Part shown: positions 3,906-54,424 of the stretch, one piece after another
Layout: each line of letters begins with the position of its first letter
How positions within the stretch are numbered: the first letter of the stretch is position 1
Origin: Escherichia coli
GTDB lineage: Bacteria; Pseudomonadota; Gammaproteobacteria; Enterobacterales; Enterobacteriaceae
Strand: one strand, 5' to 3'
Assembly (NCBI RefSeq): GCF_003790525.1
Contig: NZ_CP033635.1
DNA length: 64,000 nt
Position numbers and translations under genes: made by a program
The notes under the pieces: model-generated
Seen by the model: only the letters and a program-made list of their open reading frames with translations
The model's database searches: none
What the model was told of the DNA's origin: nothing

Positions 3906-3935
3906 GTCGGATGCGGCGTAAACGCCTTATCCGAC
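3906..3935. repeat. REP (repetitive extragenic palindrome) between the convergent rhtB and rhtC
   Basis: Palindromic tcggatgcggcgtaaacgccttatccga read directly in the intergenic spacer. Confidence 0.6.
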
Positions 3936-3958
3936 TTACTCTGATGACGCGTCTGGCA

Positions 3959-9349: not shown

Positions 9350-10198
9350 ATGAACAACATATTAGGCTCATCAATTAATATGCCCTGTACACTTTTCGAA
9401 ACTATTACTTTATTCGATGATTTTTCTGCTGATGATATGCAGTATGGGGATATGGAAGAACAAGATTTTCTCTCACTCGGCTTAAGCGACATCTCTGCAA
9501 AAGTTGATCCTTACCGCCTCATTAAATACCATTTTCCTGGGCCGAATTCTACTTATGGTGCTTTTAGTGTTCCAACTTCTGGAACAAAAATATCACAAAG
9601 TGAATGTATTGATATTTTATTTGCAGAAATGAAAGATCTGGCAAAAATGTTTTCCTTTTTTGGACAATACAAAACACTCATCCAGGATCTGATTGATCAT
9701 TTTAGATATGGAAATGGCAACAGTTTCCATAGCCAGGAATTGAACTTATCTTTTCATGAACGAATAAACAAATATGATTATAATAGCCCAATACGTGTAA
9801 TCAAAGAATGTATCGAAAATGATATTTCTTCAACACCTACGATAGGATACCGGCCTCTTCTCCTACAAAAGATTAAGACCGAATTACTTTCATCAAGACT
9901 AAATAAATTCAATGATTTTAAAGATAATTTTAATGGCATGGGAATCAGCATTCATGATATCTCAGCTCAAAAAATATCTCTTTTAAATTTTCAAAAATAT
10001 CCTATGGGCTGGAGCGCTACCATTCATTTCATAGCACAAGACCACTTTGGTTTGGATGTGACTGATATAAAAAACAAGATTTACAACAAGTATAGATTTT
10101 TTCGCATATGGTTCTTTTTACAACGGCATAAAGACTTTGCTTTCAAACCTTTTTTCACCAATTTTAACACTATCGAAAGAATCGAAAATTATCTATGA
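9350..10198 (+). CDS. Hypothetical soluble protein (282 aa), first gene of the AT-rich cassette
   Basis: Long ORF in a visibly AT-rich region, preceded by Shine-Dalgarno aaggag (9337..9342) about 8 nt before the ATG; no signal peptide or TM segment; codons strongly A/T-biased. Family unknown (tentative recollection: DUF3289-like length and composition). Confidence 0.75.
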   Translation: MNNILGSSINMPCTLFETITLFDDFSADDMQYGDMEEQDFLSLGLSDISAKVDPYRLIKYHFPGPNSTYGAFSVPTSGTKISQSECIDILFAEMKDLAKMFSFFGQYKTLIQDLIDHFRYGNGNSFHSQELNLSFHERINKYDYNSPIRVIKECIENDISSTPTIGYRPLLLQKIKTELLSSRLNKFNDFKDNFNGMGISIHDISAQKISLLNFQKYPMGWSATIHFIAQDHFGLDVTDIKNKIYNKYRFFRIWFFLQRHKDFAFKPFFTNFNTIERIENYL

Positions 10199-12894: not shown

Positions 12895-13797
12895 ATGAAA
12901 AAAAGGCTCGCAACGTTATTTTTATTAACGTGTCTGGGATCATCATCCGCCTATGCGGATAACGCTTTGATTTTACAAACTGATTTTAGCCTGAAAGATG
13001 GTGCCGTCTCGGCGATGAAAGGGGTCGCATTCGGCGTTGACCATAATCTTAAAATCTTTGATTTAACACACGAAATTCCACCGTATAACATCTGGGAAGG
13101 CGCTTATCGCCTGTATCAGACTGCCAGTTACTGGCCGCAAGGTTCGGTGTTTGTTAGCGTGGTCGATCCGGGCGTAGGCACTGACCGTAAATCGGTAGTG
13201 CTGAAAACCAAAAACGGTCAATACTTCGTTTCACCAGATAACGGTACGCTCACTTTGGTGGCACAAACTCTGGGTATTGATAGCGTCCGAGAAATCGACG
13301 AAAAAGCTAACCGCCTGAAAGGTTCTGAAAAGTCATATACCTTCCACGGTCGTGACGTGTATGCCTACACCGGTGCGCGTCTGGCTTCCGGGGCGATTAC
13401 GTTCGAACAGGTGGGGCCAGAGCTTCCTGCAAAAGTTGTCGAACTTTCTTATCAGAAAGCAAAAGCAACAAAAGGTGAAGTGAAGGGCAATATCCCGATT
13501 CTCGATATTCAGTACGGCAACGTCTGGAGCAATATCAGCGACGAGTTGCTGAATCAGGCAGGAATCAAACTCAACGACACGTTGTGTGTGACCATTTCCG
13601 AAGGTTCCCAGCAAAAATACGCAGGGAAAATGCCATATGTCGCAAGCTTCGGCGATGTGCCGGAAGGCCAGCCGATGGTGTATCTGAACAGCTTATTGAA
13701 TGTTTCCGTGGCGCTGAATATGGATAATTTTGCGCAGAAACATCAGGTTGCGTCTGGTGCTGACTGGAATATTGATGTGAAGAAGTGCGCTAAGTAA
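12895..13797 (+). CDS. SAM hydroxide adenosyltransferase (DUF62; fluorinase/chlorinase/SAM-hydrolase) family protein with N-terminal signal peptide
   Basis: 300-aa ORF with signal peptide MKKRLATLFLLTCLGSSSAYA and family-type motifs LILQTDFSLKDGAVSAMKGV, VFVSVVDPGVGT, YFVSPDNGTLT and DIQYGNVWSNI. Confidence 0.8.
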   Translation: MKKRLATLFLLTCLGSSSAYADNALILQTDFSLKDGAVSAMKGVAFGVDHNLKIFDLTHEIPPYNIWEGAYRLYQTASYWPQGSVFVSVVDPGVGTDRKSVVLKTKNGQYFVSPDNGTLTLVAQTLGIDSVREIDEKANRLKGSEKSYTFHGRDVYAYTGARLASGAITFEQVGPELPAKVVELSYQKAKATKGEVKGNIPILDIQYGNVWSNISDELLNQAGIKLNDTLCVTISEGSQQKYAGKMPYVASFGDVPEGQPMVYLNSLLNVSVALNMDNFAQKHQVASGADWNIDVKKCAK

Positions 13798-13851: not shown

Positions 13852-16014
13852 TTACACCGTCTCCAGTCGGGCATAAGCCGCCACCAGCCATTTAATACCC
13901 TGGCCCTGGAATGCCACCTGCAAACGGCTATGCTCGCCGCTGCCTTCCATATTGACGATGGTGCCTTCACCAAACTTAGCGTGGCGTACGCGCTGGCCGA
14001 GCTTGTAGCCGCTGTCGTTCTCGACCATCGGCGTACCCATCCGTTGATGGCTGACCGGGCGGCTTACCGTAGCGCGCAGGCGCACCTCTTCCACACACTC
14101 TTCCGGCAACTCACCGATAAAGCGCGACGGGCGATGGTAAACCTCTTTGCCATACAGACGGCGAGTTTCCGCGTAGGTCAGCGTCAGTTTCTGCATCGCG
14201 CGGGTTACGCCAACGTAGGCCAGACGGCGTTCTTCTTCCAGACGTCCGCCTTCATCCAGCGACATCTGGCTTGGGAACATGCCCTCTTCCATACCAACGA
14301 TAAACACCTGCGGGAACTCCAGGCCTTTCGCCGAGTGTAGCGTCATCAACTGCACCGCGTCCTGCCAGGTATCCGCCTGCCCCTCGCCCGCTTCCAGCGC
14401 CGCATGGGAGAGGAATGCCTGCAGCGGCATTAAATCTTCGTCTTCTTCGTTGTAGCTGAACTGGCGCGTTGCCGTCACCAGTTCCTCCAGGTTTTCGATA
14501 CGCGTCTGACCTTTTTCGCCCTTCTCCTGCTCGTACATGGTGCGCAAGCCGGAGTCTTTAATTACCCGGTCAGTCTGTACATGCAGCGGCATATCGGCAG
14601 TTTCCTGCGCTAAGGCGTCGATCAGCTCCATAAACCGCTGTAAGGCACTGGCAGCACGTCCGGCGAGGGCTTTTTCCTGCAACAGTTCACGACATGCCTG
14701 CCAGAGTGTTAACTGGCGATCACGCGATGTCTGACGTACCACGTCCAGCGTCCGGTCACCAATACCCCGCGTTGGTGTATTCACCACGCGCTCAAAGGCC
14801 GCGTCGTCATTACGGTTGGCAATCAGGCGCAGATACGAGAGCGCATCTTTGATTTCCTGGCGTTCGAAGAATCGCATCCCGCCGTAAATACGGTACGGCA
14901 TACTTGCCTGTAACAGTGCTTCTTCCAGCACACGCGACTGGGCGTTGCTGCGGTAGAGAATGGCGCACTCGGCAAGCGCCCCGCCGTTGTCCTGCCAGGT
15001 TTTGATACGGTTAACCACAAAACGCGCTTCATCGAGTTCGTTAAAAGCGCAATAGAGGGAAATAGGCTCACCATCCGCGCCATCGGTCCACAGTTTTTTA
15101 CCCAAACGCCCGTTGTTGTTTTCAATCAGGGCGTTCGCGGCGCTCAGAATATTGCTGGTAGAGCGGTAGTTCTGCTCCAGACGGATAGTTTCAGCACCGG
15201 GGAAATCATTGAGGAAACGCTGAATATTCTCCACCTGCGCTCCGCGCCAGCCGTAGATTGACTGATCGTCATCGCCAACGATCATCACTTTGCCGGTATC
15301 GCCCGCCAGCAGGCGGATCCACGCATACTGAATGTTGTTGGTATCCTGGAATTCGTCCACCAGGATATTGGTAAACCGTTCGCGATAGTGCTGAAGGATA
15401 TGCGGCTTGTTAAGCCACAACTCGTGAGCACGTAGCAGCAGCTCGGCGAAGTCCACCAGCCCCGCGCGGTCACACGCTTCCTGATACGCCTGATACACCT
15501 TCTGCCAGGTCTGCTCCACCGGATTACCGTAGCTTTGAATATGATGTGGACGCAGGCCTTCATCTTTCTGGCTGTTGATGTACCACATTGCCTGGCGCGG
15601 CGGCCACTGCTTCTCGTCGAGGTTCATCGCCTTGATTAGGCGTTTGAGCAGGCGTAGCTGGTCCTCGCTGTCGAGGATCTGAAAATCCTGCGGCAGATTG
15701 GCGTCCATATGGTGCGCACGCAGCAGACGGTGCGCCAGCCCGTGGAAGGTGCCGACCCACATGCCGCCCTGGCTGGTGCCCATCAGCTGCCCGATACGAT
15801 GACGCATCTCCGCCGCCGCTTTGTTGGTAAACGTTACCGCCATAATCGAGTATGGCGAGCAGTTTTCCACGCTCATCAGCCAGGCGATACGATGCACCAG
15901 TACGCGCGTCTTACCACTGCCCGCGCCCGCCAGCACCAGAAGGTTGCTGCGTGGCGCGGCCACCGCTTCGCGCTGTTTGTCATTAAGGCTGTCGAGCAGG
16001 TAAGAAACGTCCAT
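13852..16014 (-). CDS. uvrD: DNA helicase II UvrD
   Basis: ORF 13852..16200 trimmed to MDVSYLLDSLNDKQREAVAAP (720 aa); Walker [10 protein letters not shown]. Confidence 0.93.
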   Translation of the reverse strand: MDVSYLLDSLNDKQREAVAAPRSNLLVLAGAGSGKTRVLVHRIAWLMSVENCSPYSIMAVTFTNKAAAEMRHRIGQLMGTSQGGMWVGTFHGLAHRLLRAHHMDANLPQDFQILDSEDQLRLLKRLIKAMNLDEKQWPPRQAMWYINSQKDEGLRPHHIQSYGNPVEQTWQKVYQAYQEACDRAGLVDFAELLLRAHELWLNKPHILQHYRERFTNILVDEFQDTNNIQYAWIRLLAGDTGKVMIVGDDDQSIYGWRGAQVENIQRFLNDFPGAETIRLEQNYRSTSNILSAANALIENNNGRLGKKLWTDGADGEPISLYCAFNELDEARFVVNRIKTWQDNGGALAECAILYRSNAQSRVLEEALLQASMPYRIYGGMRFFERQEIKDALSYLRLIANRNDDAAFERVVNTPTRGIGDRTLDVVRQTSRDRQLTLWQACRELLQEKALAGRAASALQRFMELIDALAQETADMPLHVQTDRVIKDSGLRTMYEQEKGEKGQTRIENLEELVTATRQFSYNEEDEDLMPLQAFLSHAALEAGEGQADTWQDAVQLMTLHSAKGLEFPQVFIVGMEEGMFPSQMSLDEGGRLEEERRLAYVGVTRAMQKLTLTYAETRRLYGKEVYHRPSRFIGELPEECVEEVRLRATVSRPVSHQRMGTPMVENDSGYKLGQRVRHAKFGEGTIVNMEGSGEHSRLQVAFQGQGIKWLVAAYARLETV

Positions 16015-16072
16015 TGGCACCGCCGCGTAAAAATAGGTTGGGCGGAGAAGCGCAACGCCCTCCGCCAAAAAG

Positions 16073-16088
16073 CTGGGTATATATACAG
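16073..16088 (-). promoter_or_regulatory. LexA (SOS) box in the uvrD promoter
   Basis: Minus strand reads CTGTATATATACCCAG, fitting CTGT-N8-ACAG, about 60 nt upstream of the uvrD start. Confidence 0.7.
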
Positions 16089-16097
16089 ATTTGCTGA

Positions 16098-16814
16098 TTA
16101 TATCAGCGAGGTCAGAGATGCCAACCGGGAAATTTCCAGATGCGGGAGTAAACGGCTGTCCCAGGTTTGCATCAGATCGCCATTTTCCGGTCTGATCCAA
16201 CAGGCCTGCATTCCGCTGCGAATTGCCCCACCCACGTCAGTGGTGAGATCGTCCCCGACATGTAAGATCTCGCCGATCGGCACGTTGAGTTTTTCCGCCG
16301 CCAGGAAGTACATATCGCTGAACGGTTTTGAGCGCCCGTGCGGGCCAGCGCGCAACACAAACTCAAAATAATCCCCTAAACCAAACAGCTCCGGCTGGGC
16401 GTTACCGTTGGTGATCGCCACCAGCGGCCATTTCTTCGCCAGCTGTTTTAAGGTGTCGTGGGTTTGCTGCGGGACATCGATTCGGCTGCGCCATTTGGCA
16501 AAGTTGATCATTGCTGCGTGTGCGCCTGCACTGGCTTCTTCGGCACTCAGCCCGGCGTCGAGCATGGCTTGTTCAATCGAACGAAAACGCCAGCGCGTCA
16601 CGTCGTGATAAATCTCGGGTTCCGCTTCCCGTACCGCCTGGCGCAGGCGTTGCAGATCTTCATTCTGGAAGCTGCGCAGCGCCGGATGATAATTTTGCAC
16701 AAAGGTAAGCGCCTCTCGCTCGGTGCGCAAAATCACCGGACGGTTATCGTAAAGGGTATCATCCAGGTCAAAGGTGAGCGCCGAGATGCGCCCCAAAGGC
16801 CGGTAAAAACGCAT
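16098..16814 (-). CDS. yigB: HAD-family phosphatase YigB (5-amino-6-(5-phospho-D-ribitylamino)uracil phosphatase)
   Basis: 238-aa ORF with HAD motif FDLDDTLYD; start overlaps the xerC stop (TAATG). Confidence 0.88.
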
Positions 16815-19475: not shown

Positions 19476-19944
19476 TATGGATTGCCTGTAAAGTTCATCG
19501 CTTTCTGCTTTCTATCATCGCAGGAGAAGACGTAAAAGCAAGCGTTTAGCGACTCTTTATGAAGTCTGAAAAGTGAGGAAATGCTGCGAGTATAACGCTT
19601 ACACGTGGCGATTTATGTTTTGCTGGCAGTTTCGTGATCGGCACCTCGCGCCAGGATGGCTTTATGCACTATCGCAACGTGGTTTGTTTGTTGTCTTGTT
19701 CGTTGTTCTTATCGTCGGCATGGGGATGTCGGCTTTCCGCGCCTGAACATAATATTTACCAGAAACAGGGAAAAGGCGTGGTGTACCTGCGTCCTTATGA
19801 AAAGACCAATCTTTCGCTATATAGAGATATTATTATTCCGTTGACGGATGAATCATGCCGTAACGCAGCCGCAGACGGGCAAACTTTGAAGCCCTGACCC
19901 CATACCGCTATACTGCCGCCATCACTTAAAAACAGGATACAACA

Positions 19945-29677: not shown

Positions 29678-29781
29678 GCCGGATGCGATGCTGACGCATC
29701 TTATCCAGCCTACAGAACGCTGCAATTTATTGAATTTGCAAGGATTGTAGGCCGGATAAGGCGTTCACGCCGCATCCGGCA
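29678..29781. repeat. BIME: two inverted REP units between aslA and aslB
   Basis: gccggatgcgatgctgacgcatcttatccagcctac and gtaggccggataaggcgttcacgccgcatccggca. Confidence 0.6.
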
Positions 29782-53323: not shown

Positions 53324-53540
53324 AGGTATATTGCTCAATCTTCGAACGGGGGGGAGGATTGTAGCAGAATCGCATTTGAATGTGACCGAGTGAAAACCGC
53401 TAACCGGATGGCTGCGGATGTTTAAATCAGAGAGGGAAGGCCGAAACCGGAGTTCATCATGAATCCATTAGACTTAGAAAATATCGGGTCGTAACGTTGT
53501 GTTATTACTTTTTCAGAGTTTACTAAGGAGAGGTTTACTC

Positions 53541-53990
53541 GTGGCGATTAATTTCAGCCCCAAGGTTGGTGAAATACTGGAATGCAACTTTGGTAACTAT
53601 CCTGTTAGCCAGAATGGACAGTTCAGCACGACGTATTACGATGGCCGCATTCCACCTGAGATGATAAAAAATAGGTTGGTTGTCGTGCTCAACGGAAAAA
53701 TTAATGGCAACGCATGTATCGTCGTTCCATTATCAACCACTCGCGACCATGACAAGTTAAATCGTGGAATGCATGTTGAAATAGCCAGTAATGTTATCAA
53801 TGACCTGCAATTCTTTGATCAGCAGATACGTTGGGCTAAAGCCGACCTGGTACAACAAGTCAGTCGAAATCGATTAAACAGAGCAAGGACTTATCGGGGG
53901 TATCTTAATCAATGTTTGCCACATGAGTTGGTTGCAGACATACAGAGGGCAGTCATCAAGTCAATCAATGCCATATCGCTCATAAATTGA
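53541..53990 (+). CDS. yifN: PemK/MazF-like toxin-family protein YifN (apparently intact)
   Basis: GTG at 53541 preceded by aaggagag (53525..53532); the translation has MazF/PemK-like motif spacing (VGEILECNF, RLVVVLNG, ACIVVPLSTT). The 163-aa track ORF from 53499 is an alternative start. Confidence 0.6.
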   Translation: MAINFSPKVGEILECNFGNYPVSQNGQFSTTYYDGRIPPEMIKNRLVVVLNGKINGNACIVVPLSTTRDHDKLNRGMHVEIASNVINDLQFFDQQIRWAKADLVQQVSRNRLNRARTYRGYLNQCLPHELVADIQRAVIKSINAISLIN

Positions 53991-54066
53991 CAATAAAATC
54001 ACCATCCCCGATAATGACTCTGTAGCCCATAGAGGCCCTAAGTTTTCTCCCCTTGAGGGACCTGCG

Positions 54067-54090
54067 AAGCCCGGATTTTCCGGGCTTTTG
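54067..54090 (+). terminator. Putative rho-independent terminator after yifN
   Basis: agcccgg-attttc-cgggct hairpin followed by TTTTG. Confidence 0.5.
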
Positions 54091-54118
54091 CCATATATGT
54101 CCCCCCCTCCCTGACTGA

Positions 54119-54424
<306 letters not shown>

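Follow-up and report, generated by a model that had tools for sequence, protein, structure and literature searches.

The 83-nt gap between yigB and uvrD in Escherichia coli (positions 16015..16097 of the 64-kb stretch of DNA analysed here, which we refer to as the window) contains a short near-palindrome, and raises the question of whether this sequence is a working LexA operator or merely an A+T-rich part of the promoter at which it lies. We have very little doubt that this near-palindrome serves the E. coli uvrD promoter as a LexA operator (SOS box). What is observed here is the site itself, together with its statistical strength, its position at the promoter and its conservation, while the damage induction of uvrD and its dependence on LexA are taken from the literature; where exactly transcription starts and which step of initiation would be blocked, we infer. 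The relevant features, all on the minus strand, are listed below, with the source of each assignment in parentheses.

16098..16814, minus strand: yigB, the gene upstream of uvrD, whose 3' end holds the uvrD promoter (ORF list, RefSeq annotation)
16119..16124, minus strand: -35 hexamer of uvrD, TTGGCA, identical with the yigB Leu-Ala codons TTG-GCA near the 3' end of that gene (promoter scan)
16097..16105, minus strand: extended -10, TG-A-TATAAT, of which TATAAT (16102..16097) includes the yigB stop codon TAA at 16100..16098 (promoter scan)
16089..16091, minus strand: predicted start of transcription, 6 to 8 nt past the -10 (from the position of the -10)
16071..16090, minus strand: full 20-nt LexA site, ATCTGTATATATACCCAGCT, the unit scored by position weight matrix (PWM) and heterology index
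16073..16088, minus strand: LexA operator core (SOS box), CTGTATATATACCCAG, of the form CTGT-N8-CCAG (exact-match search)
16041..16066, minus strand: G+C-rich 26-nt hairpin GGCGGAGGGCGTTGCGCTTCTCCGCC, followed by CAACCTATTTTTA, in the uvrD leader between box and ATG (folding)
13852..16014, minus strand: uvrD, DNA helicase II, 720 codons, the regulated gene (ORF list, N-terminal translation, RefSeq annotation of identical DNA)

The site, its setting and its score

The region 16015..16097 is the entire intergenic gap, reaching from the uvrD ATG at 16014 to the yigB TAA. The initial annotation, which was made from the sequence alone, had named the downstream gene uvrD. That name is right, as both the RefSeq annotation and the translation of the first 60 codons agree, the latter giving the UvrD N-terminus with its GAGSGKT ATP-binding motif. 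Further upstream of yigB, the gene order in RefSeq is xerC, yigA and dapF.

The wider neighborhood includes several segments that differ among strains. Between yigE and the 3' end of uvrD lies a 300-codon gene on the plus strand (12895..13797), annotated as belonging to the SAM hydrolase/SAM-dependent halogenase family. This gene is accessory, being found in 2413 of the 5426 complete E. coli genomes. At about 9966..9976 the window is without the IS1 that interrupts a YPO3983/DUF3289-family gene in strain 104, and at 19701..19879, between lptM and cyaY, it is without a 3-kb segment of that strain carrying a DUF3304 gene and a hypothetical gene; both spots are strain-variable and flank the uvrD region. 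Conversely, about 0.8 kb between rep and ppiC (~53339..54130) is missing from strain 104. In other strains this segment is annotated as encoding a PemK/MazF-family toxin of a type II toxin-antitoxin system, and a query spanning it is at least 80% covered in 3975 of 5426 genomes.

The core sequence CTGTATATATACCCAG at 16073..16088 has its sole exact occurrence in the window at this position. Its half-sites, as read from the sequence, are CTG-TATATATACC-CAG, 10 nt apart with an A+T-rich center, and the center itself is a (TA)4 run (16078..16085). The initial annotation described a minus-strand 16-mer with one departure, in the right half, from the consensus CTGT-N8-ACAG. The departure is confirmed as an A to C change, giving CCAG. 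A right half of this form is common to 8 of 17 published boxes, so the 'deviation' is not really a defect.

To score the full site, a 20-position PWM was built from 17 LexA boxes, these being the 18 motifs in Table 4 of PMC3009722 with uvrD removed. Under this leave-one-out matrix, ATCTGTATATATACCCAGCT reaches 18.6 bits; its Berg-von Hippel heterology index (HI) is 7.8, below the cut-off of ~15 used for LexA boxes (PMC11002266). The 17 training boxes span 16.9 to 30.0 bits, and the uvrD box falls inside this range, ranking with ruvA, dinB, ftsK and dinG. It is the top site on either strand of the 64 kb, 4.6 bits above the next best (14.0 bits), and the whole-window scan finds no further LexA box above 14 bits. 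The runner-up, at 60379..60398, lies within the ilvD coding region, as judged by collinearity with strain 104, and was taken to be a chance match. A strand-symmetric version of the matrix gives the uvrD box a lower score, 16.2 to 16.4 bits with an HI of 10.4, yet it is still the best site in the window.

The exact score distribution assigns 18.6 bits a probability of 2.6e-7 per position. This corresponds to 0.033 sites expected by chance in 64 kb (both strands), 3e-5 in the 83-nt gap, and ~2.4 in a genome of 4.6 Mb. When the window was shuffled 200 times with dinucleotides preserved, the score was never reached. A LexA matrix scan was the check that the initial annotation had itself proposed, and its outcome bears the annotation out: the score is in the range of proven boxes, and the site is the only strong one in the window.

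Promoter, leader and variation within E. coli

A promoter scan places a single promoter-like site in 15800..16400, a sigma-70 promoter with 11 of 12 hexamer matches, a 16-nt spacer and an extended -10. It lies within the final codons of yigB, stop codon included. The -10 hexamer is separated by 6 nt from the 20-nt LexA site and by 8 nt from the CTG of the core. Since the transcription start is predicted 6 to 8 nt past the -10, the 20-nt site would cover roughly +1 to +20 of the uvrD transcript. The site thus sits in or next to the promoter, as expected of a LexA operator, given the predicted start. The initial annotation had put the box 'in the uvrD promoter', which holds insofar as the box adjoins the promoter; more precisely, it lies outside the hexamers, just downstream of the -10 and over the predicted start.

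Between the box and the ATG, the leader carries the 26-nt hairpin listed above, which is a candidate for the attenuator that Easton & Kushner 1983 have in their title. The leader with its hairpin stem folds at -20.7 kcal/mol. Relative to mononucleotide shuffles the stability has z = -1.8, and relative to dinucleotide shuffles it is no better than chance (z = 0.03). As an intrinsic terminator the hairpin falls short, in that 7 nt separate the stem from the U run (UAUUUUU), and a terminator scan returns no call on the minus strand. The hairpin is kept in Escherichia and Citrobacter; in two Citrobacter, a G-to-T / C-to-A double change leaves the pairing intact. In the remaining Enterobacterales it is replaced by other hairpins in some genera and is absent in many. 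A search of 15500..16700 against Rfam returned no meaningful RNA family, the hit to isrG having E = 0.71 and 12.9 bits against a gathering score of 100.

The Citrobacter version of the hairpin looks REP-like by eye, and the leader was considered as a possible REP element. This idea finds no support, as a search with the REP consensus, allowing up to 3 mismatches, misses the leader. REP-like sites do occur elsewhere in the window, at 3923..3939, 29697..29713 and 29747..29763, with 0 to 3 mismatches to CGCCTTATCCGGCCTAC, the tail of the REP consensus. The sites near 29.7 kb form an inverted pair.

Within the species, the junction varies little. The 1001 nt around the site match 5425 of 5426 complete E. 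coli genomes, several of them at 100% identity. For a 116-nt segment comprising promoter and leader, identity is 99% or more in 5401 of 5425 genomes, a level reached over the surrounding 1001 nt in only 822 of 5425. A 78-nt stretch holding the -10, the box and the hairpin was searched with a query that carried a TA gap, and 5401 of 5424 genomes have this stretch as in the window.

A single genome of the 5424, that of E. coli AMSCJX02 (NZ_CP031105.1), is missing one TA unit within the operator, leaving CTG-N8-CAG. This loss should break the spacing of the LexA half-sites. It could have arisen by replication slippage in the TA run, or could be an assembly error.

Conservation across Gammaproteobacteria

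Orthologous loci were collected with a degenerate pattern for UvrD residues 11 to 21, taking one genome per species, so that the selection was independent of the upstream region. The scan yielded 120 gammaproteobacterial loci, 117 of them usable. A box of at least 15 bits occurs no more than 150 nt upstream of uvrD in 90 of the 117 species (77%), whereas of 6124 control windows of 150 nt taken elsewhere in these loci, 2 (0.03%) score that high. Orders with a box include Enterobacterales, Vibrionales, Pasteurellales and Alteromonadales. The link between a LexA box and uvrD is not universal: in the PWM scan of the 117 loci, no recognizable box precedes uvrD in most Marinomonas, in Shewanella, in Thalassotalea and in one Xenorhabdus.

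An alignment of 16 Enterobacterales resolves which positions are held. Its invariant columns comprise the TTGG of the -35, the TATAAT, both half-sites of the box (CTG and CAG) and the uvrD start. Within the non-coding DNA it is CTG and CAG that are invariant, and their 10-nt spacing is kept in 16 of 16 sequences. Substitutions and indels are found between the -10 and the box, and in the leader. In a set of 33 Enterobacterales, 29 have a perfect TATAAT placed 1 to 13 nt upstream of the box CTG. Such a pattern is what one would expect if a working operator were coupled to a promoter.

The same alignment bears on the 3' end of yigB (16097..16137). Its Leu codon TTG, the TA that ends the last sense codon, and the TAA stop are invariant in the 16 Enterobacterales. 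The last sense codon is ATA in E. coli, and TTA or CTA in Serratia, Acerihabitans and Pantoea. This invariance suggests that selection on the promoter is added to selection on the protein.

Many Vibrionaceae uvrD boxes take the form (T/C)ATGTATAAATAACCAGTA, with a left half-site of ATG where the E. coli type has a near-invariant CTG. In 16 Vibrio loci, such boxes sit 7 to 14 nt upstream of uvrD, nearly touching the start codon.

Repression of uvrD, competing readings and known systems

A 1983 paper by Easton and Kushner reportedly describes, to judge by its title, uvrD transcription as being under lexA repressor control and attenuation, and the title of one by Siegel from the same year is likewise cited for a LexA/RecA-dependent induction of uvrD by damage. 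Later work is more specific as to the site. A LexA motif has been described upstream of UV-induced genes, its uvrD member being printed as a 25-mer (PMC3009722), and the window sequence AAATCTGTATATATACCCAGCTTTT is identical with that 25-mer. Saturation mutagenesis of the uvrD promoter by Reg-Seq found no activator and one repressor site, which was matched to the LexA matrix; according to the same paper, EcoCyc grades the uvrD LexA site as 'low-evidence' (PMC7567609). A uvrD promoter-GFP fusion is induced by UV and falls in the 'early' class (PMC5999292), and uvrD mRNA increases by as much as 2.19 log2 units in response to ciprofloxacin (PMC11002266). The SOS induction of uvrD, which the initial annotation had cited as known, is in agreement with these reports of damage induction (PMC3009722, PMC5999292, PMC11002266). 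In Salmonella, a single box with an HI of 11.48 is reported 105 bp from the uvrD ATG, and nalidixic acid induces the gene 13.9-fold (PMC8072944). Regulation of the Salmonella gene by lexA goes back to Pang & Walker 1983, as cited in PMC8072944, and the latter describes a uvrD ON subpopulation in uninduced cultures that is LexA-independent.

On this basis, a LexA dimer would occupy the operator in the undamaged cell, with one winged-helix domain on each CTG/CAG half-site, and would hinder either open-complex formation or promoter escape by RNA polymerase, lowering uvrD transcription. Blocking of RNA polymerase at the promoter is the classical mode of SOS repression by LexA (PMC6590174). Upon DNA damage, RecA on single-stranded DNA would stimulate LexA self-cleavage, so that the operator is vacated and uvrD expression would increase a few-fold. 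With an HI of about 8, where the tightest boxes have 0.1 to 5, the box is moderately strong, so repression is predicted to be partial and release early. Partial repression would suit a helicase that is also needed in the absence of damage, for mismatch repair and excision repair.

Two competing accounts of the gap have to be set against this one. The near-palindrome might have arisen by chance as an A+T-rich piece of the promoter, whether TATA-like spacer or initial transcribed region, and be left unbound by LexA. The plain (TA)4 center close to a TATAAT has this look, a loose CTG-N10-CAG is found 34 times in the window, and the low-evidence grade given by EcoCyc, per PMC7567609, leans the same way. 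The full site is a different matter, since chance would give such a score 0.033 times in 64 kb, and 0 of 200 shuffles reached it. Moreover, it is the CTG and CAG that are invariant, not the TA run between them, and the box persists even though the gap between it and the -10 varies from 1 to 13 nt. Since 77% of the 117 species have a strong box, compared with 0.03% of the control windows, and since uvrD is damage-inducible in published data, we regard a chance palindrome as highly improbable.

We give equally little credence to the proposal that the leader hairpin, acting as a transcription attenuator, is the main control in 16015..16097 and the LexA box a minor one. A 26-nt G+C-rich hairpin does lie between box and ATG (16066..16041), its stem is kept by a double change in two Citrobacter species, attenuation is named beside LexA control in the title of Easton & Kushner 1983, and the expression of Salmonella uvrD in the ON subpopulation of uninduced cultures is LexA-independent. 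Nevertheless, the hairpin cannot be told from dinucleotide shuffles by its energy, its U run stands 7 nt past the stem with no terminator call, and many Enterobacterales with the box lack it or have another hairpin in its place. Attenuation and LexA control are in any case compatible, so that an attenuator would be an added layer, not a replacement.

The LexA operator reading can be extended into a broader and rather doubtful one, which we mention as an outside possibility. Promoter and operator together might form an old, order-wide, dual-coded module in the end of yigB, with the codon pair TTG-GCA as its -35 and a -10 put together from the final sense codon, the invariant TAA and a further T. 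LexA sitting near +1 might double as a roadblock for transcripts that read through from dapF-yigA-xerC-yigB, and occasional slips of the (TA)4 run might give rise to LexA-blind alleles. The roadblock comes into consideration because no terminator is visible between yigB and the uvrD promoter in the terminator scan. If it were real, one operator would gate two sources of uvrD mRNA.

The feature is the already known uvrD SOS box, its LexA control having been reported in 1983 and the exact box appearing in published motif tables. Its value here is that of a positive control, in which a true regulatory site was recognized from raw sequence. The leave-one-out matrix and the cross-species test recover the box cleanly, and are usable on less certain candidates. 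There is also a modest comparative addition, namely that the Enterobacterales have conserved the promoter-operator arrangement at the yigB-uvrD junction, and that most of the sampled Gammaproteobacteria have a LexA box in front of uvrD.

The closest known counterpart is the K-12 uvrD SOS box (Easton & Kushner 1983, Nucleic Acids Res 11:8625; PMC3009722), which has the identical sequence, gene, species and neighbors. The site itself is without difference from K-12, whereas the window belongs to a non-K-12 lineage, being 100% identical to strains such as SMS-3-5 and IAI39 in the stretches tested, and has the accessory gene beside the 3' end of uvrD. The uvrD boxes of other Gammaproteobacteria, such as Salmonella, Vibrio, Haemophilus and Pseudoalteromonas, are likewise LexA-type and upstream of uvrD, with a distance from box to ATG that varies from 6 to ~130 nt. 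Among other E. coli LexA operators of middling strength, the boxes of ruvA, uvrB, dinB and ftsK share with that of uvrD the form CTG-N10-CAG, an A+T-rich center and a CCAG right half, and their scores are close, at 19.9, 20.6, 18.0 and 17.8 bits respectively, versus 18.6 for uvrD. Like these genes, uvrD has a single operator beside a sigma-70 promoter. Unlike theirs, the uvrD box departs from the consensus mainly in its flanks, which read AT...CT rather than TA...TA, and it is located downstream of the -10 rather than over the hexamers, at a promoter that, again unlike theirs, is written into the coding end of the upstream gene.
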